Shown: piece by piece, positions 11,014 to 60,400 of the stretch
Layout of the letters: the number at the start of each line of letters is the position of its first letter
How positions within the stretch are numbered: position 1 is the stretch's first letter
Origin: Narcine bancroftii
Taxonomy: Eukaryota
Direction: 5' to 3'
Assembly: GCF_036971445.1 (NCBI RefSeq)
Contig: NC_091476.1
Location: 133,548,001-133,612,000, forward strand
DNA: 64,000 nucleotides
Made by a program: the position numbers and the translations under genes
Notes under the pieces: model-generated
Databases searched by the model: none
Told to the model about the DNA's origin: nothing
What the model saw: the letters and a program-made list of their open reading frames with translations, nothing else

Positions 11014-11737
11014 TCTTCTTCTTCTTTGGCTTGGCTTCGCGGACGAAGCGGGTAAATGTCCACGTCAGCTGCAGGCTCATTTGTGGCTGACAAGTCCGAT
11101 GCGGGACAGGCATACACAGTTGCAGCGGTTTCAGGGGAAAATTGGTGGGTTGGGTGTTGGGTTTTTCCTCCTTTGTCTTTTATCAGTGAGGTGGGCTCTG
11201 CAGTCTTCTTCAAAGGAGGTTGCTGCCCGCCGAACTGTGAGGCGCCAAGATGCACGGTTTGAGGCAATATCAGCCCACTGCCGGTGGTCAATGTGGCAGG
11301 CACCAAGAGATTTCTTTAGGCAGTCCTTGTATCTCTTCTTTGGTGCACCTCTGTCACGGTGGCCAGTGGAGAGCTCGCCATATAACATGATCTTGGGAAG
11401 GCGATGGTCCTCCATTCTGGAGACGTGACCTACCCAGCGCAGTTGGATCTTCAGCAGCGTGGATTCGATGCTGTCGGCCTCTGTCATCTCGAGTACTTCA
11501 ATGTTAGGGATGAAAGCGCTCCAATGAATGTTGAGGATGGAGCGGAGACAACGCTGGTGGAAGTGTTCTAGGAGCCGTAGGTGATGCCAGTAGAGGACCC
11601 ATGTTTCGGAGCCAAACAGGAGTGTGGGTATGACACCGGCTCTGTATACGCTAATCTTTGTGAGGTTTTTCAGTTGGTTGTTTTTCCAGACTCTTGTTTA
11701 GTCTTCCAAAGGCGCTATTTGCCTTGGCGAGTCTGTT
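11014..11737 (-). mobile_element. RTE LINE 3' fragment (same family)
   Basis: Near-identical reverse complement of ~2037-2765; (GAA)n tail. Confidence 0.95.
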
Positions 11738-22215: not shown

Positions 22216-23081
22216 TCATTTATCTATTTTATCTTTGGCTACCCTTGTTATGCTATGGATATATTCAAGTTTTGACTGCGAATGCAAGCAAATTTTAAAA
22301 TTTGGGTCTTGTAGTTTTCATTTCCAAATATGTCATAAAAGATATTCATAGCTCTTGGTGATTAACACATAGTAACACTGGTTTTCTGATGGTATTTGAA
22401 TATCATATTATTGAATATTATTATTGATGTTGATTTTTCTTTGAATATATTTATTTTAATTCTGCAAAGTAAATTTCCTGATCAACGACATGCTCAAAAG
22501 TTCCTTTGTAATGGAAACCTCATAATTGGGTATTGGGTAATTAGGTAAGCATAGAATTTATGAAATGTATAACAAAGACATTGTTTATGTATTTCCAAAT
22601 GCATAGTCAAATCTAGGGTGTTTTGAACTGTTAATAGGAATCCCTGTTAATCATACTATCTTTGCACCTGAAGAATGGACAATCTGGTCAGTCCAGACCA
22701 AAAATAAAGGTTTCATTTTCTTTCCATGTAACCTTAATTGGAGAAGTTTCACTCCCAGTGAAAGCAGGCATCAGTGATTAAATTCACTATTATGTCCGGT
22801 GCGCCCTCTTAATCTGCATTTGGCTCTGGAAATGCTTGATTATGATCTGACGGCTGCATACTATATACTTGGGTGTCCCAAACAACCAATGATTGGCACC
22901 TTTCAGTCGTTCCAATGCACTTGCTGCGTACTCCTCCTAATCCATTAGCTTGCATATTCTTCCAGCATCTAAATCCTCTCCAAGACTAATGTGCCCAGCA
23001 CATTCATGCAACTGCTGGCACAAGTCATATTATCTGCATACCTGACACCTTCCTCATCAACAATCATTTAGCTCAACTGCA

Positions 23082-23530
23082 CTGCGCTGGATGGGTCACG
23101 TCTCCAGAATGGAGGACCATCGCCTTCCCAAGATCGTATTATATGGCGAGCTCTCCACTGGCCACCGTGACAGAGGTGCACCAAAGAAAAGGTACAAGGA
23201 CTGCCTAAAGAAATCTCTTGGTGCCTGCCACATTGACCACCGCCAGTGGGCTGATAACGCCTCAAACCGTGCATCTTGGCGCCTCACAGTTTGGCGGGCA
23301 GCAGCCTCCTTTGAAGAAGACCGCAGAGCCCACCTCACTGACAAAAGGCAAAGGAGGAAAAACCCAACACCCAACCCCAACCAACCAATTTTCCCTTGCA
23401 ACCGCTGCAATCGTGTCTGCCTGTCCCGCATCGGACTGGTCAGCCACAAACGAGCCTGCAGCTGACGTGGACTTTTTACCCCCTCCATAAATCTTCGTCC
23501 GCGAAGCCAAGCCAAAGAAAAGAAAAAAAG
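23082..23530 (+). mobile_element. RTE LINE 3' fragment (same family)
   Basis: Near identical to ~2336-2770; A-rich tail. Confidence 0.95.
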
Positions 23531-28599: not shown

Positions 28600-30860
28600 G
28601 CAGAGTAGGTGGGGACGGAAATATCTGACCGGGTGAGGCCAAGGTTGCCATGGGATTAAGTAGTTGTAGTCATCTAATCAATGGGTGAATGGGGGCAGTT
28701 AGAGAAAAATATGGACCAAGTGAAGATGACATTTCGGGCCTGAGCCTTTCTTCAAGGAATAAGCAGAATGAGCAAAAAACAATGACCTGTCCATCTCTCG
28801 CAACATTCTCTCTTTCTTCGATCTCTCTCTGGCTCCATCTTGGGAGACGAACTCTCGACAGACATTTCTACAAACCTGCCAACTCCCACAGCTACCTCGA
28901 CTACACCTCTTTACACTATGTCCCCTGTATGGACTCCATTCCATTCTCTCAATTCCTCCATCTCCATTGCATCTGCACCCAGGACGAGGACTTCCATGCC
29001 AGATGATCAGAGATATGCTCCTTCAAATAATGTGGCTTTCCCTCTACCACCATCACTTGGCCCTCACCTCATATACTTCAATACCCGCACATTGCCCTGG
29101 CCCCCTCCGCCCCCATGTACAACAAGGACAGGAATCCTCTTGTTCTCACCTACCACCCCACCAGCCTCCACATCCAGCATATCTTTCTTTGTCTTTTCCA
29201 CCACAAACTATGTGATTGCACCACTAGACACATTCCATTCTCCTCTGCCTTCTGCAGGGACCAGTCCCTCCTTAACTCCCTTGTCCACTCTACCCTCCCC
29301 ACCAATCATCCCCTTGGTACCTACCCCATGACCACAGGAGATGCTTCACTTGCACCCACACCTCCCCCTCGTCACCATTTTGGGCCTCAAACAGTCCTTG
29401 CAGGGGTCACTTACTGCATCTTTTGCCCCCATTGTGGTCTCCTCACCATCAGAGATACTGGGCGCGGACTGGGAAATCGCTTTGTTGAGCACCTTGGCAA
29501 AAGCATGGATCTCCCAGTGGCCACCCACTTCAATTCTTCATCCCATTCCCTTGCTGACATATCTGTTCATGGTCTCATGCACTGCCAGACTGAGACCACC
29601 TGCAAATTGGAGAAACACCAGCTCATCTTTCAATTGGGCATCCTCCAACAAGATAGCGTAGATATAATACATCTCCAATTATCCAAAATCTTCATTTATC
29701 TGAAATTGTTTTGGACCTGGAAGAGATGTCTGTTTGCCTCCGAAAAATTTTGGATAAATGAGGATATCTGAAACAATGAAAAATCCTAAGTTATCCTAAT
29801 TTTTAAAATCCAAACTGAACTCGTGTTCAAAACAAAAGTTCACCTAACATGAAATTAGAATGATGATTATCCTTGATTTACGTAACTCCTTCCCCTCTCT
29901 CTTTCCATTTCTTCTTTATGTACTGCTATCGACTTTTCTCTCCAGTTCTCCCTCTCAAACTGCGTGCCACTCTCTCAGAAGAATCCCTTGTTCTGGCGTT
30001 ATCAAGGAGAGCAACCTTCCAGGCAGGAGTGGGAGCTTGAACTCTTGGGAAACTCAGTGGAGAGGTGTTGGTGATTGTCAGCAGCATTTGGGGGTAGGGG
30101 GAGGTGTACGCACAGGAGAAGACGGGGTCTGTGTCGGGTTCCAACATCGAGAATCAGGACGCGAAGCTGGAATAGCCCCTGCTAGAACAAGTCGACAGGG
30201 GGACAGAAGCCTGCCGACTCACCAGTGTGCGTTCCACTGGCCCAGGAACCCTTCCCAATAATTCGTGGAAGCAGTGGGTACATGTTGGGGTTTGGCGGCG
30301 GCGGTTGAGAGGTCTTGGTGATCGTTGGGGACATGGGGATTGGTGGCGGCCAGCATTTTTTTGGTGAGAATTAAACATTAGTTTAATGCTTATAAAGCGT
30401 TACCTTGTTTGTTGTTTAAACATTGATACAAGTAATTTTCTGTTGATACTGGGCTATTTTAAAAAAAATGGCCAATTATCCAAAAAAATTCAGTAATCTG
30501 TAATAGAGGACCAACACCGGTCCCGACCATTTTGGATAATTGGAGTTGTACTGACTTCTCTTTCGTTTAAAACCCCCATTACCTTCCCCTGCTTTGTATC
30601 TCTTTTCTTTTTCCCTGTCTCCTTTTGTACAAACATGATCAATTCTCACCTCTCCCCTTAAATCCAAGTAACATCTTTTGTTGGTCTGGATTCCTCCCCC
30701 AGCCAGATCCTCTGAATTCTGAGACTTCCTGCTTTTGGCTCATTCTGCTTCTTCCTTGAAGAAGGGCTCAGGCCAAAAACTCAGCTGATCTTTCATTGTC
30801 TCCTATGGTTGCTGAAAGACCAACTGAGTTCCACTGGCATTTTGGTATGTTTTTTTACCT
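28600..30860 (+). mobile_element. Penelope-like element (RT C-terminus + GIY-YIG endonuclease), interrupted by a MITE
   Basis: YKPxNSHSYLDYTS/SIPFSQFL, PLVLTYHP, 'VTYCIFCPHCGLL..DTGR.LGNRFVEHL', PVATHFN; inverted terminal copy at ~28720-28770 vs ~30740-30790. Confidence 0.85.
29667..30554. mobile_element. Tc1/mariner-pogo-like MITE (CAGTACAACTCCAATTATCC-type TIR)
   Basis: Inverted ends ..ATCTCCAATTATCCAAAA / TTTTGGATAATTGGAGTTGTACTG; related copies at ~19727, 34925-35299, 42841-43171, 61989-62709. Confidence 0.7.
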
Positions 30861-31201
30861 AGTTGAGAGGAAGAATTTTGAGAGTCATGGTAAATGAATG
30901 GTTGAATGGGACTAGCTGGATTGCTCTTGTATAAATGTTTCCAAGTTGATGGGCCAAATGTGTTGTAATCATCTGCAGAAGGGTAACTGTTATATGGGGC
31001 CACAAAAGTCAATGCCATATATTTTGGGAACTGCTCTTTGGACAATGCTTACTTTATAGACCTCCATTTTCTGTTTTCACCTCAAATTGATCTGCTGAGT
31101 ATTTCCAGCATATTTTGTTTTTATTTTTTCTTATAGTTCATATACTATGAACTATGTAGTTTCATAGGACAAAATTAAAGATGCACTTTCTGTTTCCACA
31201 G

Positions 31202-31303
31202 GGATTTGTCAGAGTTCACTGCAGCTGTGATTGCCATATTGAATATCATTTGTATTGCTGGAAACGCTGCAAAATTAAAGAGTTTCAAGATAAAATAGAA
31301 AAA
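31202..31303 (+). CDS. TTC3: TTC3-like exon (GFVRVHCSCDCHIEYHLYCWKRCKIKEFQDKIEK)
   Basis: Matches TTC3 'GFIRISCCQYCKIEFHMNCWKKLK...FNDKIDK'; phase 0/0. Confidence 0.93.
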
Positions 31304-31583
31304 GTTAGTATTATATTGTCTCTTGTAATGTTTTTCTGTTTGAAAGCAATTTCTGAAGGACTCGAATGCAAAACATAGTTTTGCATATAATCAAATTACT
31401 TTTTTGGAAAAGATACTGGACTGAGACCAATGGTTAGAAAGGGGCTGAGAATCTGTGGGTCCAACCAAACTACAGGTCTGTGGATTTATCATTGATTAAA
31501 GATGTTCTTAATTCCTGCTTGGAGTCATGATAAAAGTAAACCTATTTCACTTTTAAAATTGAACTTATTTGGAAATGTTTCAG

Positions 31584-32858: not shown

Positions 32859-35800
32859 GTAAGTTTAGTTATTGACTTGTTTTATTTGTTTCATAAATGT
32901 TTAAATTCACAACAAAATGTATAAATGAAACAAATGTATGAATAGTAGGAAGAAAAATGGGGGAATATGGTCAAGATATCTGCACGTGTGCCTGATCTTC
33001 TCCCTACGTCATGGTTGTGCAGCTGTAATGTGTTGTTTTAACACTTGTACTCTGTGCCCCATCTGTTGAAAGCAAGTGTGCCATATGACTTCTTCACCAC
33101 CTTGTCCACACTTTCAGTGTACTTGTGCTTCCAGGTGTCTCTGTTCTGTTACATTCCCCGGGGACCTGCGTATGTCCTGCCTTGGTTTAACTTCCCAAAA
33201 TGTATCATTGCCTTTGAATCTAGCTGTGCTGCGAATGTTGTGCAAAGTGTATTGGAGCTGTTATTCTCATTGCAAGGCTGGAGTAATTGTTTCCTTGTGG
33301 TTTACATCCCCTCGCTGAATAATTCTGCTTTTGCAATCCAGCTTCGCCCTCTAATACAGTTAGAAATTCTGTACTTTGCTTGTTGAACTGGACTTGTGCA
33401 TGGCTGAACTTTGTAGAGAAATAGTGGAAAAATGCTGGCTTAATGCAATGATTCAAGATTATTTTCTTGCCATTTAGTAGAACAGAAAATGTAATATAGT
33501 TATGTAATCTTTTATCTGAAATTGTGAAAACCAAAAAAACAAACATTTTTTATTGCATGTGCAGTATATTTTCAGGTGTTAAGCTGAGTTTGAGCCAGTT
33601 TTAGTTTGAAATCTTACTGTATGTTTTAAAAATACAAGGATTGTCCTCCAGCAGAATTTTAGCCATCATGGTTAAAGGGTATTTGACAGAGGGAGTGGCT
33701 CGGGAAGAGAGCGGCAGCATGGCTTGGGCTGGTGAGTGAGGAGAGAAAGGCAGCGCGACTTGAGTGGGGAGAGAGTGGTCTATCTCACTTTGTTTACCAC
33801 CCCCATCCAATGTCGCTGTGGACCACCCCCACAGCAATTACTTAAAAGTACTGCTGTTTTAATATTATTTCGTTGTCCAAAAAATTCTGAAAATGTCTGG
33901 TCCCAAGGATTTCGGATAAAAGATTAAACATCTGTATTACACAAAATTTCCTTTAATCTACCAAAAGGCAGACAAAGATTTGCCAACAGGAAGAAATTGC
34001 CCAGCATCCCTTATAGTCCAAGGGGAAAAAAAAGAAAAAGAGAGTCCCTCCAGAGTTGCTGAGTGTCCATGGATTCACCTCCAGTTCTCCCACAGCCACA
34101 GAGCCTTCAGTCCAATCCATCGCCAACCTGAGCTACAGATCCAAATCATTGATATGAGCAGGAAGCTATCAGTATCCTTGGCACTCTTTCGCATCTCTCT
34201 GAAACCTGGTGCCCTTTCAACGAGTCTTAAACAAGCCTCTTGACTGCATTTGCCCACAGCCTGCATAGGTTCCTTGCCTCGAGTCACCAACAGCCTGTGT
34301 CTTCTTTAGCATTAGAGCCCCTTACTAATTTGCCACTGTGGTTGCTGTCCCGTAGGGTGATTTCCTTTGCTACTCCTCAAAGGAAGGGAGGTTGGGGTGT
34401 TTGCTATCTGGTGCCCAGTGATCAACTGCAACCAATTTTTGCATTTTTAGAAACGGCAAAGGGGGAAATTGCTCACTTGTAGTATTTTCCAAATTGTTCT
34501 CCTAACTCCAGCGAGTGAGCCTGATGTGCCATTGCCACAACTCATGGTGGGAACAGTGCACTGACTTTGTATCAGATTAGATCTGGCACTGAGGCCACTG
34601 TTTCCTTCATTTTGATGGAGGCAAACAGCTGCTCAGCTCCAACATAAATAGACATGCAAGGCAAGTTGATACTGGGAGGCAAGTGGTAAAACTGACAGCT
34701 TGACAATGAATTCTGTGGGAGGAGGACTCCTTTAACAAACCCCTCAGGGTCATTTTATTGGGACCAAAGGCTTGATCTTTGTAGACAGGACAAAAGGGGA
34801 ATTTTAGAGGATGGTTCTGAATATCTATGAACAATTTTGTGTTTCCTCGTGCCCAAGTTGTGTTCATGAGGAAGCAGAAAACGAAAAAACAAAAATTAAC
34901 CAATCTCGTCTGCTGCTAAATGGAATTGTGATTATCTGAAATGGTCAGGACTGGGCCCATTTTGGATACATTTTTTTGGAGAACTGGTTATTTTTTAAAA
35001 CAGCCCAGTAGCAACAGCAAATCACTTGTAACAGTGTTCAAACAACAACAAACAACAAGGGAAGGCTTTTTAAGCATTAAAATGAAGTTTAATTCTCACC
35101 AAAAAAAAAAATGCTGGACATCACCGATCACGAAAATTTCTCCACCGACGCCCCGCTCGTGCCAGGAGCCTGAGGGTCCCGCTCCTGCCTGAGAACTTGA
35201 GGTCCGCTGCTGCCACCACCGTGGGCCCAAGGTCCCCAGTCGGTTTGGCTCTGAAAACATTTTGGATAAATGAGGATTTTGGATAATTGGAGTCTACTGT
35301 ATTTGATCTGAAAAGTTCAATCACATTTTAATTTCAAACAAATGGGTGAAACGATAACTGTAGTAACTACTATCCAGAAAAAAAGCCACTCGGAGTCAAA
35401 GTGGGCTCTTTACTGTGACGTATATGATTAAATTTTTAACAAAGGCCAGATGCATTTTAAATTGTTTATTAGTGAACACAAAAGGACTCATAATGTGGTA
35501 ATGGTAACGATAATGTCCTTGCTAACATTTCTAACTATAACGACCAGTCTCTTCAGTAATGTAAAATGTATCGTCCAACAACCAACGTGTACCGTTGAAC
35601 AGAAAATATCGGAGCCTTACTCACCCACCGTCTATCCCACCATACCAGTCAACACGGGATAACTAACTGCCCCAAATGCACGCAACCCCTGCATGTGCGC
35701 CAACCCAAATCAATAGTGCATGTGCACTGGGAGATACCGAACGCGTGCAACCCTGGGATGCCGTTGATGTCTGCAGGCAAACCAACATTGATAAACAATA

Positions 35801-36028
35801 GGCCTTTGGCTCTTACACCAGTCCCTAAATATTATCTCAAATAATAATTACACAATTTTAAATAACAATCATATATAGTAAATTCTAATATTATGTTGAT
35901 CTTTTTTCTGCATTCTTCAGAGGTCAGAGGTTACTAGCACATAGCCTTGAAAAGAATGATCTTTACCACCACTCTGGACCAGTAAAGTCTGTGTAGTGGA
36001 CAAGGGATAAGGTCCAAAAACAACAAAA

Positions 36029-36910
36029 ATAAAGTCAGGCAGTTTTTAGTTTTCTTTCACTGTCACAGCATTATACAAGGAAATTTAAATTCCTCCGGAC
36101 AGATCTGTGGCTTTTTAACAATAACATGTTATTTTTAGCAGCTTTGTCAAGAAATTCTGTTTCAAGGACACTGTCTCTATTTGCATTCCAATGTGTATTG
36201 GGTTGTTCATCATTGTGCTTCTGCAGGTTGAATCAGCCAGAGACACACAGAATCCACTTGATCATCATTTACATCATAAATCACCTTTGATTTCACAGCA
36301 CTGTTCTGGCCTATTGCTTCAGCACCCCCAGAATATTAGATCCATTGCGAGACCAATCCCATAATGTGATTATTTTCAGTCACCCCGTAACATCCAATAT
36401 TTTTCTAAGCACCAGCAAAAGTCAAACCAAACTTGATTACATCCACTGGCTTTGAAAGAAAACTTAAAAAACAAGTCACAGATAGGCACAGCTCCCTTTA
36501 TGTCAGGGACAAAGGGGAATTCCACACCATGAACATTGGCACATATAGTAACAAAAAAGGCATTTGGATTCAAATTCTAATTGGTTGGATTAGGAATAGT
36601 TCTGTAAGCACCAATCTTGGCATGCACAATATTCACTTTTCCATATTTCTCTGCTTCTTTGGCTGCATTGGTAGACCAAGCTCTAGTAACCACATAATCT
36701 GCACTCCTCTTTTAATCCAGTAAGATTTAAAGTTACAACACTGAACTGACCAGTTCCACCTCCTGGAGAAAGATCACTTTGTAGTTTTTCAGAAATTTTT
36801 AGTTTTTGCAGGTAATTTTCTGCAATGTTGACAACTTTGAAGTTTGCTGATCCATGACTCATTTCCAGAACACTAATTCCAACCTCTCTGTAATCGAACA
36901 GCTCTTTCTG
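36029..36910 (-). pseudogene. PSAT1: Processed (intron-less) phosphoserine aminotransferase copy, frameshifted and internally deleted
   Basis: [96 protein letters not shown] are collinear with PSAT1. Confidence 0.93.
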
Positions 36911-37627
36911 TGCTTTTGAATTCTGGTAAACAACCACAACTTCTTTCAAAGGGTACTTAATAGGAAGGGTCTTTCTGTCTCGGATCACTCTTCCGAGCTC
37001 AATAATTGACTGCATTTGGGCGATTGCTGCCTCAATACGTTTATCAATAACAGATTCCCTTACTTGTGGGAGCATGAGCTAGTAAATGCTTTGATTATCC
37101 TTTGATCAACCAGGTGCCTTATGTTCTGGTACACGAGTTCAGTGATAAATGGTATAAAGGGTGCTATCAGCCAGCATGTCAAATAAAACAGCAAGCAATG
37201 TTTCCAAAACTCTTTCACAATTCTCAATATCATTTTCACCCTTTAACTTTCTATGATTTATTTGCACATACCAATTTGTGAGAATGTCCACAAATTTGAC
37301 TAGTCTGGGCACCATAGTGTAGAGTCTATATGTTTCAATTTCTACTTCGAAAAAATGGATTAGGGTTTGTGCAAATGAAAGCATCCATTTATCCATGATG
37401 TCACTGACCTCAGCTGTACTTCCATTGAAAATAAATTGAAAACCCTCTTCCTTCTGCAATCTCTGAATATTCTAAATAAGGAATCTGGATACATTGAATC
37501 AAGGTAGGAAGTCAACCTTGAGAACATCTCTCTCCTCCTTTAAACTGTAAATTTTCTGCTCTTGCAACAGCCTCAATACATCTGCTCCATAGGTGTTAAC
37601 AATGTGAATTGGATCTGGCTAATTCTT
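36911..37627 (-). pseudogene. IARS1: Processed (intron-less) fragment of cytosolic isoleucyl-tRNA synthetase (post-KMSK region and anticodon-binding domain)
   Basis: KN*PDP..YGAD.LRL, LQKEE, DKWMLSF, YRLYTMVPRLVKFVDILTNWYV, MQSIIELGRVIRDRKTLPIKYPLKE; stops and frameshifts present. Confidence 0.95.
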
Positions 37628-37877
37628 ACATTTTGTGTTAATAGTTGTTATGCAGCAACTGGTAACCAACAATCCCGTAACTGTTCTCGCATGCATCAGC
37701 AAAATAATGCAGTTGAGCAGATGTCACCATTGCAAAGTTTGTGGGTTTGAAACATCTGTCAACCATAAAGCTTTCCAGCTTCTGAAGATCCTGAATCCAA
37801 CACATTCATTCCTGTACTTATTTTTGTTTCTTAAATCGTTTGAACAACTCAGAAAACGATGTTTCAATTGTATTCAT

Positions 37878-39720
37878 TGTAGTGGCGGCTACACTGCTAA
37901 CTGAAGGATCGCACAACCAGACTGGTTGAGTTCAGTGAGCAAAACTGATTTATTGCAGGCTACCTGACTGGTCTTATACTCCCAGCCCGGACCTGGCTGA
38001 GAACCACGCCTGGGGGGCCCCGACGTCACCGGTGCAGAGGTCGAGAGGAAACCCCCCGACGGTGCCATTTTGGCCGGCTGCCCTGCCATGTACGTGACAG
38101 GTGGGGCTGGTTCACCTGCCTAATGGTGTACAGCCACACAGCCCCCCCCAGAACCAGCACCAATGCCCTTTTTTGCTGGGCGGCCTTGCTTCTTGGTTTG
38201 GGCCTCAACTACTGGCTCGGTGGGGTCGAGGTGGGCTGGCTTTAACCTGTCCACCGTAAACAGTTCCCTCTTACTACCGATGCCCAGTGTGAAAGTGGAT
38301 CCTGAGCGCTGGATGACTTTGTACGGCCCTTCGTATGGTCTTAGTAGAGGTGCTGTGGACGGGCACTGCCTGATAAAAACTTATTCTGTGGAGTACAGCT
38401 CACTGGGGACATAAGATGCCCATGTGCCATGTCTGGGTGTCAGTAGGGGTGTGAAGGAGTCCAACTGGGCCTGGAAGCAGGGAAGTAGACCGTGTGGTGA
38501 CTGCTGGGGGTTATGAGGTGCGTTGACGAATTCACCAGGTAGGGCTAGTGGTGCACTGTAGACCAGCTCGGCTGATGACGCCTGTAGGTAGTCTTTGGGT
38601 GTTGAGCAGATGCCCAGGGCACCCAAGGCACCTCATCCACCCAGTTGGAGCCGGTGAGGCAGGCCATAAGTGCCGACTTAAGGTGGCGGTGCAATCGCTC
38701 AACTAGCTCGATTCCCAGCCTGTTGTGAGTTGTGCCCAGAGCACAGAGTGCACTGGGCGCCCCGATCACTGGTGAGATGGCTCGGGACGCTGAACTGGGG
38801 AACCTAACCGTTCAAAAGCGCTCGGGAGCAGGAGTCTGTGGAGGCATCTGGCATCGGGATTGCCTCGTGCCAACGAGTGGTGCGGTCTACCACTGTGAAA
38901 AGATAACGGTTACCTCGGGAAACGGGTAAGGGTCCGACGATGTCCACATGTATGTGGCTGAACCGTTCCCGGACGTGTTCGAAATCTTGTATGGGCTCTC
39001 AGGTGTGCCTGTGTACCTTGGAAAGCTGGCAATGGGTGCAGGTTCTGGCCCAATCTGCTTCCGAATCCAGTGCCAGACGAAACATTCTGCCACCATACGA
39101 ACTGTGGACCTGATGGAAGGGTAGGAAAGGTCATGGATATGGTGGAAGACTTGCCTGTGCCACTGCTGGTGAACCACTGGACGCGGGTTGCCCATGGAGA
39201 CATCACAGGACGGTGCCCTCGCCATGAGGAGTCAGGAGGTCCTGGAACCGCAGGCCCGTGATGGCAGTCTCGAAGGCCCGCGTCTCCTCGTCGGACTTCT
39301 GGTCCCAGATGAGCTGGTCGAAGTCGAGGCCGGGAATCAGCGCGCAAAATGACCATACCCGCGAACTCCTGTAGCCCCTTGAGGTTGTTGTTGCCCCTTG
39401 AGGTTGTCTGGGCGAGGGAACTCCCTGACTGCAGCGACCTTCGTAGCGGCAAGTGTAGCTCCTTCGGCCGTGATGGTATGGCCCAGGAATTACATGGACT
39501 CTTTCTCGAACTGGGATTTGGCCGGATTGATCGTTAGGCCGAAGTCGGCCAGTCGGGAGAAGATGGTGCGCAGGTGAGACTTGTGTTGTGCCCGGTCGCT
39601 GCTGGCAACAAGGATGTCATCCAGGTAAATGAATACAAAATTCAAATCCCTGCCCACTGTGTCCATAAGGCGCTGGAAAGTCTGGGCGGCGTTCTTGAGC
39701 CTGAATGACATGCGTAGGAA
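37878..39720 (-). mobile_element. Gypsy (Ty3) LTR retrotransposon 3' half nested in the BEL element
   Basis: LTR 37878-38140 (TG..CA, minus-strand AATAAA), G-rich PPT at 38141-38150, integrase remnants, RT 'LKNAAQTFQRLMD..FIYLDDILVAS'. Confidence 0.92.
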
Positions 39721-40208
39721 CCCAAGTCCATAGTCATGTGCACTGGAAGATACTGATTGCGTGCAGCCTCCAGACCCTGCAACGCTGCCGATGCCTATAA
39801 TCAAACTGACAGTGGTAAACAACAAGCCTTTGGCTCTTACAATAATAATACGTAAAATTGATTAATGCTATTCTCAATGATTCCAACCATTTGCTCCTCA
39901 TCAAAGGCAAAACTGGATATCAATTATGGAATTGCCAATAGTCTATCATCTCTTATGCAGAAAAATATGCATTTCTCGTCGAAATATCTCATTACTATTT
40001 GAAATTGCTGTTTTTCAATATTTAATATAAAACTTCAATATTCATATACAAGTTTTGTCTTCAGGATATCTTTTCAGCGCAGCTATGTTTAACTATGATA
40101 CACATAGTGCACAAGCCAATGTCTGCAGAGTTGGGAAGAGAGTTTGATTTTAATTTGAAATGTTCTAGAAGGAGTTGTTAATGTTATGGTTTGTGATTCT
40201 TTAATTAG

Positions 40209-40384: not shown

Positions 40385-41049
40385 AAGTCTGGTGTTTAAA
40401 AAGACATTAAAAACAGCTGAAGCCATACATAGATCAAATTGGTTGGTTGAAAATTTAACTTGTGTTGAGAGAGGTGGTGTGAGTGCAGGGTAGACTTTGT
40501 TTTGTTGGTATTTGAGAAGTTGGATCCTTGTGACTCATGAGGGAGTTCAGTGTTTACTCAGTGTGGTACATAAAAAGTATAAATTTTATGATAGATCATA
40601 ATGAGTTTATTTTCTTACACATTGTGTAATGTATATATGCTCAAAATTCTTGAGCTGCAGCTGAACAGGAACTTGTAATGCAAAGCTAAAATAGTAAAAT
40701 AATTGAATTCAATTAACAAGTCTGGTGTTTAAAAAGACGTTAAAAACAGCTGAAGCCATACATAGATCAAATTGGTTGGTTGAAAATTTAACTTGTGCTG
40801 AGAGAGGTGGTGTGAGTGCAGGGTAGACTTTGTTTTGTTGGTATTTGAGAAGTTGGATCCTTGTGACTCATGAGGGAGTTCAGTGTTTACTCAGTGTGGT
40901 ACATAAAAAGTATAAATTTTATGATAGATCATAATGAGTTTATTTTCTTACACATTGTATAATGTATATATGCTCAAAATTCTTGAGCTGCAGCTGAACA
41001 GGAACTTGTAATGCAAAGCTAAAATAGTAAAATAATTAAATTCAATTAA
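40385..41049. repeat. 333-bp tandem duplication of intronic sequence
   Basis: 40385-40717 and 40718-41049 identical except for about 4 substitutions. Confidence 0.95.
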
Positions 41050-42840: not shown

Positions 42841-43171
42841 GAGTACAACCCTGATTCTCTGAAATCCTCAGTTATCCGAAATTTTTTCGGAGCCAAACTC
42901 TGTGAACCTCAGGCTCCTGGGCAGGAGTGGAGCCTCGGTGGGGAAGTCTTGGTGATTGGCAGTGGACAGCAATTTTTTTTTTGGAGAGAATTAAACATTA
43001 TTTTGGTGTTTAAAAAGCCTTATCTTGTTGGTTATTGTTGTTTAAACACTTACAAGTGATTTGCTGTTGCTACTGGGCTGTTTTTTTAGAAAATGACTGG
43101 TTCTCCAAAAAAAAAACGTTGATCTGAAACGGGCCTGGTCCCGACCATTTTTGATTATCGGGGTTGAACTG
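42841..43171. mobile_element. Tc1/mariner-pogo-like MITE copy
   Basis: TA-flanked (G)AGTACAACCCTGATT...GATTATCGGGGTTGAACTG termini. Confidence 0.7.
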
Positions 43172-46549: not shown

Positions 46550-48610
46550 TATAAAAAATGGAAAGTCTAAACCCACTACCAAGAAAGAAGCTGGCCGAAA
46601 AAAGAAAGACAGAATTTTTATCTCATTAGTCAACATTTCTACCTTCATAGCAAATCAAAGATTATAAAAGAGTCCCCACAGTGTCTGAAATTTTAAATTC
46701 AAATCAGAAATTGTGCATCTAATCTTTAAGTTAAACATGACATGACATACATAATTAGGCGGGGTAACACCCCTCCATCTGAGCAACACCACCCACCTAA
46801 CCATAAGAGAAATAAAAGTCCATGTAGCTCAGATGTCATTAACATTATGTCATTCTCTTCAACAATACCAAATAAAGCAGTTTAGGTATTTGGTTTGAAA
46901 TTAACTTCAAAATTGCAGAGAAAGTTTGAAATACTTTGTTCCAATATTTCTCAAGACTGGCATGTTCAGAACATATGAATTAATTATTTCCATTGATGCA
47001 TTTATCACAATGAGGTGATACATCCACTTCAAAATGAGATAGTTTGACTTCAGGCATGTGAGCCCAATGGACTACTTTAAATTGTAGGAAAGAGTGGTGG
47101 ACTCATAAAGAAGAGGTATTAACCAATTTGAAAATTATATTCTAAGTTTCTTCAGCTGTAGGTCCTGTTCCCAGGCTTTTTAAATTTTATCTGAGGGAGC
47201 CTCTCTTGTTCCCAACATAAATGTTAGATATTTAATCATTATAGAAAGGTTATAAATTTAAAAATTACCCCAATTAAAAACTTAAAAAGAATGGAGGTTT
47301 AGCTTTACCAAACTTAATGTTTTATTATTGGGCAGTCAGTATATGAAACCTTTGTTTTGGTTATAATAACTGTGAAGACTGTCCAATATGGATATCTCTG
47401 GAATCTAATTTGCAGACGATGCCACTTTAGTTGCCCATTCAGAGCCAGCTCTTCAGCGCTTGACGTCTTGCTTTGCGGAAACTGCCAAAGTGTTTGGTCT
47501 GGAAGTCAGCCTGAAGAAAACTGAGGTCCTCCATCAGCCAGCTCCCCACCATGACTACCAGCCCCCCCACATCTCCATCGGGCACACAAAACTCAAAACG
47601 GTCAACCAGTTTACCTATCTCGGCTGCACCATTTCTTCGGATGCAAGGATCGACAACGAGATAGACAACAGACTCGCCAAGGCAAATAGCACCTTTGGAA
47701 GACTACACAAAAGAGTCTGGAAAAACAACCAACTGAAAAACCTCACAAAGATAAGCGTATACAGAGCCGTTGTCATACCCACACTCCTGTTTGGCTCCGA
47801 ATCATGGGTCCTCTACCGGCATCATCTACAGCTCCTAGAATGCTTCCACCAGCGTTGTCTCCGCTCCATCCTCAATATCCATTGGAGCGCTTTCATCCCT
47901 AACGTCGAAGTACTGGAGATGGCAGAGGCCGACAGCATCGAGTCCACGCTGCTGAAGATCCAGCTGCGCTGGGTGGGTCACGTCTCCAGAATGGAGGACC
48001 ATCGCCTTCCCAAGATCGTGTTATATGGCGAGCTCTCCACTGGCCACCGTGACAGAGGTGCACCAAAGAAAAGGTACAAGGACTGCCTAAAGAAATCTCT
48101 TGGTGTCTGCCACATTGACCACCGCCAGTGGGCTGATATCGCCTCAAACCGTGCATCTTGGCGCCTCACAGTTTGGCGGGCAGCAACCTCCTTTGAAGAA
48201 GACCGCAGAGCCCACCTCACTGACAAAAGGCAAAGGAGGAAAAACCCAACACCCAACCCCAACCAACCAATTTTCCCCTGCAGCCGCTGCAACCGTGTCT
48301 GCCTGTCCCGCTTCGGACTTGTCAGTCACAAACGAGCCTGCAGCTGACGTGGACTTTTACCCCCTCCATAAATCTTCGTCCGCAAAGCCAAGCCAAAGAA
48401 GAAAGAATTCTGTTACAAAATTTTCTCTAATTTCTCTTCTTGGATCCTCTTCCTAGATCTCTAAATAAATTAACTAATAATCCTGTGGTTAAACATACTT
48501 TGAGTATATGGATACAATTAGAAAACATTTTGGTTTAATGAGATTGTACTCTCTCTAGTCATATTTTTCTAATTATTTCTTTAAGCCATCTACTACTCAT
48601 TTTTTTTCGT
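46550..48610. mobile_element. Old L1-clade LINE in two orientations (3' part on -, ~46550-47250; upstream part on +, ~47260-48610), split by an RTE
   Basis: Minus: QFKVVHWAHM, LEKYWNKVFQ; plus: KKNGGLALPN..YYWA, WISLESN|SVTKFSL, NPVVKHTL. Confidence 0.7.
47409..48407 (+). mobile_element. RTE LINE 5'-truncated copy (same family), open from FADD region to the end
   Basis: Near identical to ~1781-2770; ORF 47460-48347. Confidence 0.95.
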
Positions 48611-55010: not shown

Positions 55011-55208
55011 GTATGATAACAATGTTTCCTCCAAATTATAAAGTTTGGTAGTAAATGCTACCTTTGTTAACAATTTGTATCTCTGGAGATACAACAATTT
55101 TCAACAATTGTTTAAAAAGTCTGGTATCAATTGTTTTTTGAGATGATGTTCAATGTATAAATTATTTGTTTGGGTATTCTTGGTTTAATTGGGCCTTGAA
55201 ATGCATTA

Positions 55209-56743
55209 CAGGTACACAATCCTTTATTAGGAACCCTTGGGGTACAGTGTGTCCAGAATTTCAGATTTTTCTGGATTTCGGAAGGCCAGATTTAAACCCA
55301 CCTGAATTGTGCTGTCGTATCCAACCCCGTCCCCTTCCAGTTGCGCTGCCATGTCCCCTCCCCCTCCCCCTCACCCGCCCGACTCACGCTGCCAGTCTCC
55401 CGCCCGACTCATGCTGCCCCCGTCTCTCCTCCTTGTCCGCCCGACTCGCGCTGTCAGTCTCTCTCCACACTTGTCGCTCTCTCCCCCCACTTGTCGCTCT
55501 CTCCCCCCACTTGCCGCTCTCTCCCCCCACTTGCCGCTCTCTCCCCCCACTTGCCGCTCTCTCTCCCCACTTGCCGCTCTCTCTCCCCACTTGCCGCTCT
55601 CTCTCCCCACTTGCCGCTCTCTCTCCCCACTTGCCGCTCTCTCTCCCCACTTGCCGCTCTCTCTCCCCACTTGCCGCTCTCTCTCCCCACTTGCCGCTCT
55701 CTCTCCCCACTTGCCGCTCTCTCTCCCCACTTGCCGCTCTCTCTCCCCACTTGCCGCTCTCTCTCCCCACTTGCCGCTCTCTCTCCCCACTTGCCGCTCT
55801 CTCTCCCCACTTGCCGCTCTCTCTCCCCACTTGCCGCTCTCTCTCCCCACTTGCCGCTCTCTCTCCCCACTTGCCGCTCTCTCTCCCCACTTGCCGCTCT
55901 CTCTCCCCACTTGCCGCTCTCTCTCCCCACTTGCCGCTCTCTCTCCCCACTTGCCGCTCTCTCCCCCCACTTGCCGCTCTCTCCCCCCACTTGCCGCTCT
56001 CTCCCCCCACTTGCCGCTCTCTCCCCCCACTTGCCGCTCTCTCCCCCCACTTGCCGCTCTCTCCCCCCACTTGCCGCTCTCTCCCCCCACTTGCCGCTCT
56101 CTCCCCCCACTTGCCGCTCTCTCCCCCCACTTGCCGCTCTCTCTCCCCACTTGCCGCTCTCTCTCCCCACTTGCCGCTCTCTCTCCCCACTTGCCGCTCT
56201 CTCTCCCCACTTGCCGCTCTCTCTCCCCACTTGCCGCTCTCTCTCCCCACTTGCCGCTCTCTCTCCCCACTTGCCGCTCTCTCTCTCCCCACTTTCCGCT
56301 CTCTCTCCCCACTTGCCTCTCTCTCTCTCCCCACTTGCCGCTCTCTCTCTCCCCACTTGCCGCTCTCTCTCTCCCCACTTGCCGCTCTCTCTCTCCCCAC
56401 TTGCCGCTCTCTCTCTCCCCACTTGCCGCTCTCTCTCCCCACTTGCCGCTCTCTCTCCCCACTTGCCGCTCTCTCTCCCCACTTGCCGCTCTCTCTCCCC
56501 ACTTGCCGCTCTCTCTCCCCACTTGCCGCTCTCTCTCCCCACTTGCCGCTCTCTCCCCCCACTTGCCGCTCTCTCCCCCCACTTGCCGCTCTCTCCCCCC
56601 ACTTGCCGCTCTCTCCCCCCACTTGCCGCTCTCTCCCCCCACTTGCCGCTCTCTCCCCCCACTTGCCGCTCTCTCCCCCCACTTGCCGCTCTCTCCCCCC
56701 ACTTGCCGAATTTTAAATGTTCGGATAAAGGATTGTGTACCTG
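55209..56743. mobile_element. Tc1/mariner-type MITE with perfect 19-bp TIRs
   Basis: TA|CAGGTACACAATCCTTTAT ... ATAAAGGATTGTGTACCTG|TA. Confidence 0.88.
55460..56708. repeat. 20-bp minisatellite (CCCCACTTGCCGCTCTCTCY)n, about 62 copies
   Basis: Seen directly; blocks of C/T variants and a few 22-bp units. Confidence 0.97.
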
Positions 56744-56797
56744 TACCTCACATTTTTTGGATTAAACTCAATGTCACCAACTCAACAATAACACATA

Positions 56798-56925
56798 GGG
56801 CGGTATGATTGGTGTAGTGGTTAATACAATATCTTTACAGCACCAACGATTGACCGGACTGGGGTTCAAATCCCATGCAATCTGTAAGGAGTTTGTACGT
56901 TCTACCCATGTTATGTAAGGGTTCA
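56798..56925 (+). mobile_element. tRNA-derived SINE 5' part
   Basis: A-box TGGTGTAGTGG and B-box GGTTCAAATCC followed by SINE core GGAGTTTGTACGTTCT. Confidence 0.75.
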
Positions 56926-58540: not shown

Positions 58541-60400
58541 TGTGGCTTCACTTTTGAGACCTTAGGTTCATTGAAGTGATGTTAATTCAGCATACAAGTC
58601 GATGCTGCAAGTACCTCCCCGCTGCCGCTCCCCTACAACTCCCCACCACTGGGAGCCACTATAACCTGCTCCTGAAAACTCATGAACACAAAATAACGAC
58701 ACACGTAGCTGCAGGTAAATCAGAGCATGTTTACTTGAGTCACGTGCGTATCTTTTGAAATACTGAACCATGCACTCCATGTCATGACATTTTGACGTTC
58801 CGTGTCTGTTCACTAGACTTCTGGGAATGTGGTCTATCTATAGCCCTGCTACATGTCCCCCACTCCAAAACTGGCACTATCACCTGGTAGTTTTTTGGGA
58901 GGTCAACCCCGGCATTGGACTGCTGTGGCTGTTGAATAGGGGCTGTTTTGTCAACGTGGGCAGATTTGAGTCTGTCAACTGTGAATGACAGAGACTGCCC
59001 TGCAATGTCCAAGAAGCAGGTTGACTTTGTTCGTTTTATCACCCTATATGGTCCCTTGTAAGGCATCTGCAATGGCTGTTCACGTGTTCCTCTACGTACG
59101 AACACATATTCACAGTCCTTCAGTTCGTGTGGTACAAAAGAAACATGTTTGCCATGTGATGATGGTGTTGGTACAGGGATAATTTGCCTATGGTATCCCT
59201 TAGTCTGCTCAGCAGCTCTTTAGGATCTTCATCTTTACTGGATCCATGTGGTCTTTAGTTTTGCCAGTGTACTAGATAAATGAAGACGTTGACCATGCCA
59301 CACCCTACTGCATCCATAACTCGCTGAGTGGTCTGAGTTGCATTTATTTTAAAACCCAAAAGACATAGGTAAAAATGAGAACAATCTGAAAGATTGCCAG
59401 TTTGCTCTCCATTCTCTGGTGTGCTTTTGGACTAAATGTAATGGAGGTGCCCGTGGGCTGATGGACCTGCGAATTATCCCCTCCTCTTCCATTTTGTGGA
59501 ATTCTTGTTTAGCTAATTGCAGTTTCTCTGGAGGCAAACGATGTGCCATAGCATGAATGGGAGGATCCCTGGTAGAAATGTGGTGAGTTACTCCATGTTT
59601 CGCGATGGGAATCGAAAACTGCAGAGTTGTAATTTTGGGAAACTCTTCTACAAGTCTATAGAACTTATCAACAGTCTTAAGCAGGGCTTGAAGGCACAGC
59701 ACAGGAACATGCAATTCTGCCTGGTGAATAGCTTGCAAGGTGGTACTATCCACCAACCAAACTCCTTTTAAATCTACCATGAGCAAATGAGCTCAAAGGA
59801 AATTGGCCCCGAGTAGCTGTCATAACACTGCAGCTATAATAAAAAGCCATATGTGAATTTTCTCCTTGAACTGAACATTCATTTTTGGTGCCATATGTGG
59901 GTATGTTACAACTATTGACTGCTGAGAGTTGGAGGTTAGGGGTTGGATAACATGTATCGAAACTGGTTGGTGGAGAAACACTAACCTCCAATCCTGTATC
60001 CACCAAATATTTATGTTGGGATAAGCTGTTCCCAAGGTTCGTAGATTTTCGGCCAACCATTACAGCCATTAATGACGGTTGGCCAGGGCGTTTCCCGAGA
60101 ATGCACAGAGTGGCAGGCATCTATTTGCATTGAATCCCCAATGCCTAGGGCAAAAACACCAAATAGAAGTGTGGACAGGCTGCCTGATTTGAGATGTTGC
60201 CTCCTTATAGGAGCTGGTGTATTAAAAGCATTGACTTGGGAAGTAATGTCAACAACAATGGAGGTGCTGGGTGCAGACTGCTGTGACGTAGTGACATTGT
60301 CCACAACATATTTCATCATGTCGCTTCTGTTAAAATCTGGAATTGATCCATCATTAATGAGGAAAGAGCCTGTATAGTTGAGCTTTGACCTCCAAAGAAC
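58541..60400 (-). mobile_element. Second decayed Gypsy element (different subfamily)
   Basis: LTR 58541-58853 (TGTGGC..GCTACA), PPT GGAGTGGGGGACA, integrase tail PYKGPYRVI, RT start 'RLPPEKLQLAKQEF..MEEEGIIRRS', protease YLVDTG; large internal deletion. Confidence 0.88.

Follow-up and report, generated by a model that had tools for sequence, protein, structure and literature searches.

The window analysed here is a stretch of 64,000 nucleotides from the electric ray Narcine bancroftii (assembly GCF_036971445.1, contig NC_091476.1, positions 133,548,001 to 133,612,000). Its minus strand contains, at 39841-35359 and flanked by the target duplication ATTAT/GTTAT, an insert that is very probably a decayed, non-autonomous copy of a BEL/Pao LTR retrotransposon in which pol has been replaced with spliced pieces of TACC3, IARS1 and PSAT1, likely gained by template switching at short microhomologies. 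The features of this element, and one exon stretch of the gene around it, are as follows.

39842..39846, minus strand: left target-site duplication, which reads ATTAT in the orientation of the element and matches the right copy at 4/5 positions
39705..39841, minus strand: 5' LTR remnant, BEL/Pao, the first ~137 nt, starting TGTAAGAGCC, a direct repeat of the start of the 3' LTR
37878..39704, minus strand: younger Gypsy-type fragment with reverse transcriptase (RVT_1, E 5e-14), integrase end and purine tract
38140-37878, minus strand: LTR of the Gypsy-type fragment, inside the latter
37814..37877, minus strand: TACC3 mRNA remnant, 92% identical to the host cDNA
37644..37817, minus strand: BEL/Pao pol remnant (RNase H/Pao peptidase region, PF05380), 82% identical to an autonomous-type copy
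36903..37650, minus strand: captured IARS1 piece, aa 597-862, with the KMSKS loop and the anticodon-binding domain; 7 introns absent
36903..36915, minus strand: IARS1/PSAT1 junction, a 12-of-13-nt microhomology, in frame
36029..36915, minus strand: captured PSAT1 piece, aa 25-362, introns absent, with a 109-nt deletion in the window copy
35818..36028, minus strand: element 3' UTR and purine tract, the same sequence that follows the pol stop in autonomous-type copies
35359..35817, minus strand: 3' LTR, 459 nt, TG...CA
35354..35358, minus strand: right target-site duplication, which reads GTTAT in the orientation of the element
31160..31375, plus strand: host-gene exon stretch encoding a TTC3/DZIP3 domain (PF19179, E 7e-11)

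The pol remnant lies between the TACC3 and IARS1 cargo. In other copies, the full TACC3 piece covers aa 592-783, with 6 exons joined; in the window, a deletion has taken most of it, along with the BEL gag and protease and the 5' half of the Gypsy-type fragment. In organisms C and D, the cargo region is covered at depth and most of the Gypsy-type fragment has low or zero depth. An initial, sequence-only reading of this DNA had assigned the chimera to an intron of a TTC3-like gene, in antisense orientation. The element is indeed downstream of, and antisense to, the exon with the TTC3/DZIP3 domain, and its intronic position is likely, given the putative coiled-coil exons farther downstream; among 17 candidate plus-strand stretches searched against Pfam, the host gene was recognised in one.

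The window is rich in other repeats. There is a tandem duplication of 333 bp at 40385-41017 (99% identical), a long low-complexity tandem array with several open frames at 55142-56800, a second Gypsy-like fragment near 58780-60400, and RTE-type LINE copies at 752-2794, 11131-11697, 23046-23465 and 47409-48347. A short element with inverted ends occurs as three related copies (34970-35290, 30340-30550 and 42850-43170), which have high depth in all four read sets and probably represent a MITE-like repeat.

The IARS1/PSAT1 chimera and its parent genes

The spliced IARS1 coding sequence of the host is matched at 666 of 740 nt (90%, ~247 codons) by positions 37650-36903 of the minus strand, and spliced PSAT1 at 768 of 880 nt (87%, ~293 codons) by positions 36915-36029, in good agreement with the about 240 and 290 intronless codons that were estimated originally. 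Both parents are multi-exon genes in the Narcine bancroftii genome, as had been presumed (PSAT1, 9 exons at C1:75.907-75.948 Mb; IARS1, from C11:41.917 Mb), and the window copy crosses seven host exon junctions in each, one of those in PSAT1 lying within the 109-nt deletion. Since the largest insertion relative to the spliced parents is only 3 nt, no intron is retained, and alignment to the mRNAs of the species itself confirms that several introns are missing from each half; the proposal that both halves were reverse transcribed from spliced mRNAs is therefore upheld by the intron loss. In protein searches, the best matches of the family copies are the PSAT1 and IARS1 of Narcine bancroftii, to which the spliced genomic exons of the parents translate exactly (for IARS1, aa 502-1141), and the Pfam matches of the family copies are to Aminotran_5, tRNA-synt_1 and Anticodon_1. 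A horizontal or microbial source of intronless genes is ruled out because the host's own genes are the best matches.

The order and identity of the two parts, isoleucyl-tRNA synthetase followed by PSAT1 on the minus strand, had been read correctly, but the part does not form a single open frame. The window copy contains stops, frameshifts, 6 deletions in IARS1 and 15 indels in PSAT1, in accord with its proposed status as a pseudogene, and the junction itself falls within an open stretch of 131 codons (36686-37078). The IARS1 piece was thought to start just after the KMSK motif; it starts at G-Q-K-M-S-K itself, and the motif is damaged in this copy by an 11-nt deletion. At the other end, PSAT1 stops 9 codons short and continues into the element 3' UTR and LTR.

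The IARS1/PSAT1 junction was found in 30 of the 106 stretches examined, in identical register in 26. It is also spanned, with 0 differences, by a contig that comes from a different study and sample of this organism, and, with 18 differences in 122 nt, by a contig of another organism (D). These copies and independent contigs rule out misassembly. A processed pseudogene or chimeric retrocopy mediated by a LINE was rejected because PSAT1 lacks an intact 3' end and runs on into the element 3' UTR and LTR, and a retrocopy that landed inside an existing element was rejected because the pol segments are replaced rather than interrupted.

A BEL/Pao family with host-gene cargo

The original interpretation of the insert as a single retrocopy of two mRNAs has to be abandoned: the chimera is carried by a BEL/Pao LTR element that exists in many copies and has TACC3 as a further cargo. 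A DNA search yielded 145 candidates, and all 40 of those scored, the window itself apart, are dispersed loci with 77-84% identity. In uninterrupted copies, homology extends beyond the chimera to paired LTRs of ~450 nt that are 6-6.8 kb apart, with TG...CA ends and a purine tract. Among 16 copies tried, both ends were located in 10, and the 5-bp target duplication matches at 4/5 or more positions in five of these, at 3/5 in two, and at 2/5 or fewer in three with decayed ends. The autonomous-type copies, with the order gag-PR-RT-RH-IN, contain the Pao-type pol domains PF05380 and PF18701, and the gag-protease-pol remnants are 63-88% identical to them. The gag pieces gave no Pfam match and were assigned by position and CCHC-like motifs. 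Family copies share the sequence directly after the 5' LTR, where a tRNA primer-binding site would be expected. A search with the RT piece of the BEL/Pao family produced 1,061 candidates.

At least 96 dispersed loci on 13 contigs have parts of pol replaced with pieces of IARS1, PSAT1, TACC3, SMC5 or GTF2I, a lower bound obtained by collapsing search matches and excluding parent exons. Three copies at C9:172.91, 173.18 and 173.66 Mb have identical scores and stops, which could reflect either segmental duplication or redundancy of the assembly. The TACC3 cargo, spliced from 6 exons of a parent at C8:32.86 Mb, is located between the protease and IARS1. SMC5, found at 9 loci, is spliced from 8-9 exons of a parent at C1:24.43 Mb, an exon of which matches human SMC5 (9LWI, E 2e-18). 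GTF2I is carried by three copies (C16:15.50 Mb, C9:42.68 Mb and C17:141.08 Mb; L109, L135 and L136, respectively) that have both joins in common; its spliced piece of ~1.2 kb replaces pol from RT to mid-integrase, and the multi-exon parent is on C29. That contig contains two opposed multi-exon GTF2I-like loci (33.14-33.29 Mb, minus strand, and 33.59-33.68 Mb, plus strand), with some exons in more than two copies, which is a local duplication.

Among 104 stretches tallied, the forms are TACC3-IARS-PSAT (28), TACC3-IARS (11), IARS-PSAT (8), PSAT (8), SMC5-PSAT (5), IARS (4), TACC3-IARS-SMC5-PSAT (2), other or partial (5), and stretches with none of these four genes (33), where the short forms include copies clipped at the ends of the fetched stretches or by later deletions. 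No sixth cargo was detected in 12 stretches upstream of element 3' ends, five of which consist of unassigned or other-repeat sequence. In one further copy (L149, C17:157,292,145-157,292,694), the integrase end is immediately preceded by ~500 nt of unassigned sequence, which may be an insertion or another cargo.

Probable order of captures and recombination

The coexistence of single-, double-, triple- and four-gene forms makes the order of template switches readable, so that the family preserves, like a fossil series, the successive steps by which a vertebrate element captured genes. In two copies (L096 and L079), pol is joined to IARS1 and TACC3 is absent; eleven copies contain TACC3 and a long IARS1 piece (to ~aa 1110) and lack PSAT1. 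On the other side, L089 has a long SMC5 and no PSAT1, the one SMC5-only copy among the stretches examined, and in L048, L051, L053 and L055, SMC5 is joined to PSAT1 starting from the PSAT1 5' UTR. The window form combines the two: its three 5' joins are those of the TACC3-IARS1 form, and its PSAT1 3' join is that of the SMC5-PSAT1 form. Substitutions tell the same story. The PSAT1 change R301T is present in 17 of 19 window-type and all 5 SMC5-PSAT1 copies, the host and four outgroups having R; R62Q is common to both forms as well, although at a CpG site; and L31F is confined to the window type (20/23 vs 0/6). Because R301T and the 3' join are common to both forms, PSAT1 appears to have been captured once, and the IARS1::PSAT1 join likely goes back to recombination of one element RNA that already carried IARS1 with another that carried PSAT1. 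The same TACC3-IARS1 and SMC5-PSAT1 lines also gave a second recombinant, represented by L052 and L090.

These forms suggest the following scenario. Host mRNA would have been co-packaged in particles of the autonomous family and captured by a microhomology-guided switch of the reverse transcriptase onto the mRNA and a second switch back to the element, as in the model of Tan et al. 2016 for capture during reverse transcription (PMC5131818). IARS1 would have taken the place of the pol segment that extends from RNase H to the end of integrase, after which TACC3 would have replaced RT; separately, SMC5 may have replaced pol from just before the YVDD motif of RT, with PSAT1 subsequently added behind SMC5; and GTF2I would be a third independent capture. 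The products, with their LTRs and packaging signals, could have been mobilised in trans by autonomous relatives, and RNA heterodimers of the TACC3-IARS1 and SMC5-PSAT1 types would have recombined to give the window form and, at another site, the four-gene form. Part of this order is indirect because neither a TACC3-only founder (20 further loci included; L115 looks like a deletion) nor a PSAT1-only founder was found.

The sequence-only reading invoked instead a template switch between two co-expressed mRNAs. The microhomology of the junction is of the kind expected from a template switch; as templates, two element RNAs are the most likely pair. A one-off switch between IARS1 and PSAT1 mRNAs that yielded a single chimeric retrocopy would account for the 13-nt microhomology, the in-frame join and the loss of introns, and it could appeal to the fact that IARS1 and PSAT1 are both targets of ATF4. 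TACC3, SMC5 and GTF2I, however, are not known to be such targets, and co-expression under ATF4 is not needed as a cause, given the shared PSAT1 3' join and the shared derived substitutions. Moreover, the join is common to 30 copies inside LTR elements, forms devoid of PSAT1 have an IARS1 piece that extends to ~aa 1110, those devoid of IARS1 have a PSAT1 piece that starts in its 5' UTR, and the derived substitutions and 3' join held in common with the SMC5-PSAT1 forms already contradict such an event, which we regard as scarcely credible. It is also very improbable that a TACC3-IARS1 element took up PSAT1 mRNA directly and independently of the SMC5-PSAT1 element, through reuse of one 3' hotspot. 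The 8-nt microhomology at the PSAT1 3' join could be used repeatedly, and reuse of one switch site is described for the fly BLASTOPIA element (PMC5131818), but independent capture fails to explain R301T, which is found in both forms and absent from the host and outgroups, or R62Q, its CpG context notwithstanding. Recombination between cargo-bearing elements thus remains the preferred origin of the window form, and it follows that chimeric retrocopies can arise between such elements and not just between mRNAs.

Reading frame at the junctions

The joins show microhomologies of about 3-13 nt: 10 of 11 nt at pol/TACC3, 4 nt at TACC3/pol, 8 nt at pol/IARS1, ~5-6 nt at IARS1/pol, at most 3 nt at pol/SMC5, 4-5 nt plus 2 extra nt at SMC5/PSAT1, 12 of 13 nt at IARS1/PSAT1, 9 of 10 nt at IARS1/SMC5 and 8 nt at PSAT1/3' UTR. 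All 10 multi-copy coding junctions are in frame. For eight of these, the modal, in-frame register is seen in 19/20, 29/35, 18/19, 7/9, 4/4, 4/4, 21/24 and 2/2 copies, with a joint p = 0.0016 under a microhomology-matched null that ignores hotspots; the two GTF2I joins were found to be in frame by inspection, the 5' one read without the parent exon. All cargo is in the sense orientation and no frameshifting indel is common to most copies, the shared indels being 6 nt in TACC3 (most copies) and a 2-nt insertion in SMC5 (3/7). Four single-copy joins, too few for a contrast, are in frame in two cases, by an approximate reading. In young fly retrocopies, 10 of 18 scored sides are in frame with the LTR ORF, a count conditioned on the longest ORF, and the 5' side is in frame in both of the retrocopies that occupy several insertion sites (PMC5131818 Table S12).

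That every shared join is in frame suggests that only readable chimeras could multiply. BEL/Pao elements have a single gag-pol frame, so an out-of-frame insert would introduce a stop 2-3 kb before the 3' end. We therefore lean, somewhat, towards a filter acting on the RNA, whereby chimeras that kept the single gag-pol frame open would have escaped decay or been packaged and so multiplied; loss of RNAs with an early stop would be the preferred reason. In Ty1, translation may be needed for RNA stability, and there is no cis-preference, so that a packaging filter cannot be taken for granted (PMC3945221). RNA surveillance would not demand an open frame at a join that lies 90 nt before the natural stop, yet that join is in frame too, and this is a point against the frame filter. 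A less likely but serious alternative is chance, helped by an in-frame bias of microhomology and with no filter at all. Microhomologies between these coding sequences themselves are in frame in 37-86% of cases, the events number only ten, and the fly 5' joins are in frame in 6/8 (PMC5131818 Table S12); against this stand the p value for eight joins, which would be lower with the two GTF2I joins, and the difference between 10/10 here and 10/18 in flies (one-sided Fisher ~0.014; fly data from PMC5131818). Counting joins in this family offers a way to test whether the spread of a chimera depends on an open reading frame.

Conceivably, the host domains were translated in their fused form to the benefit of the element or the host, for instance as a dominant-negative SMC5 or TACC3 coiled coil, in the manner of oncogene-transducing retroviruses. 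The in-frame joins, the sense orientation and the lack of a shared frameshift would fit, but changes of the element lineage affect outgroup-invariant residues (R301T, P546T and L31F), the SMC5 forms are rare, and the copies decay at dN/dS 0.71-0.92. With the HIGH half missing from the IARS1 piece and the first 24 residues from PSAT1, these fusions could hardly be enzymes. No protein joining RNase H and isoleucyl-tRNA synthetase is among the best 150 of 867 protein matches, six of which were inspected. Such a function is accordingly improbable. We also consider it very unlikely that BEL/Pao acted as an in-frame domain-shuffling engine, in which capture and recombination would yield many chimeras, only open Gag-protease-host-domain polyproteins would spread and the freed TACC3 coiled coil, SMC5 hinge region or GTF2I repeats would favour the element, much as oncogenes favour the retroviruses that transduce them. 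A functional chimeric retrogene comparable to maize Bs1 was rejected in view of the stops and frameshifts of the window copy and the dN/dS values of the copies inspected.

Comparison with known systems

In oncogene-transducing retroviruses, host mRNA lies between LTRs and is spread by a helper, with gag-fusions in frame. HERV-K with FAM8A1 likewise captured a host mRNA between LTRs and was spread by a helper (PMC5131818). Unlike these, the ray family has no env, carries several genes and shows no selected protein activity. A close parallel is the LTR-mediated retroposition described by Tan et al. (PMC5131818), where spliced partial mRNAs replace part of the element ORF, joins show microsimilarity, both LTRs are kept and secondary retroposition occurs, as the common switch points of copies indicate here. 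The multi-gene cases given there are two genes in the fly Pao element BATUMI and four in the mouse 'Super' retrocopy, and the fly cases are young and occupy few sites (18 for 9 retrocopies), with 10/18 sides in frame. By contrast, the ray family is an old vertebrate BEL/Pao lineage with at least 96 loci, five genes, 10/10 joins in frame, surviving intermediates, and recombination between cargo elements. Maize Bs1, another LTR element, likewise contains spliced parts of host genes, three of them and unlinked, with common switch points, but, as described, it has 1-5 copies, one piece is out of frame and it is expressed (PMC5131818, PMC13317346), whereas the ray family consists of tens of dead copies per form with no sign of constraint, and no run recorded as RNA is among those listed for it. 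The mechanism, then, is already known from these systems; what is new is the recombining network of five genes and the in-frame state of all its shared joins. A search of the open-access literature found no paper on the BEL/Pao cargo family of Narcine bancroftii, and the retrocopy passages of the VGP preprint do not mention it. Tens of apparent IARS1, PSAT1 and TACC3 pseudogenes belong to one transposon burst and would inflate retrocopy counts.

Age and decay

The copies decayed nearly neutrally after one old burst. Paired LTRs differ by K2P 0.20-0.26 (8 copies), and the copies differ by 8-11% from the column yardstick and contain 253 stops. The 33 copies compared in an IARS1 tree form a star (terminal branches 0.086, internal 0.006), and distances within and between types are the same (~0.15), which together indicate that the burst was short. 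The dN/dS of 0.33-0.40 between yardstick and host mostly reflects host-gene evolution and CpG decay, and the founder ratio has no power because the forms differ at 2 diagnostic sites in 746 codons and the tree is a star. Amino-acid states polarised in three genes, with asymmetric criteria, fall into 18 derived states that the elements have in common with Narcine to the exclusion of all outgroups, 25 changes that arose in the host once capture had taken place, 7 that arose in the elements (3 of them at CpG) and 15 ambiguous cases. These states place the capture part of the way along the electric-ray line, when skates and stingrays had already separated; the published range for the origin of the electric-ray order is 106 to 164 Mya (10.1101/2024.11.04.621869). 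The family is likely many tens of millions of years old, on an uncalibrated scale.

Two further features concern TACC3. In L036 (5247-6175), a 42/84-nt unit is tandemly expanded at ~97% identity into a coiled-coil frame open for 387 codons, a young expansion inside a decayed old copy. Comparison with the TACC3 parent exon (L069:5253-5438) shows that the captured TACC3 lacks one 33-nt repeat unit of the annotated protein P0241, which fits either splicing at a GC donor that precedes the GT donor or a gain of the repeat in the host at a later time.
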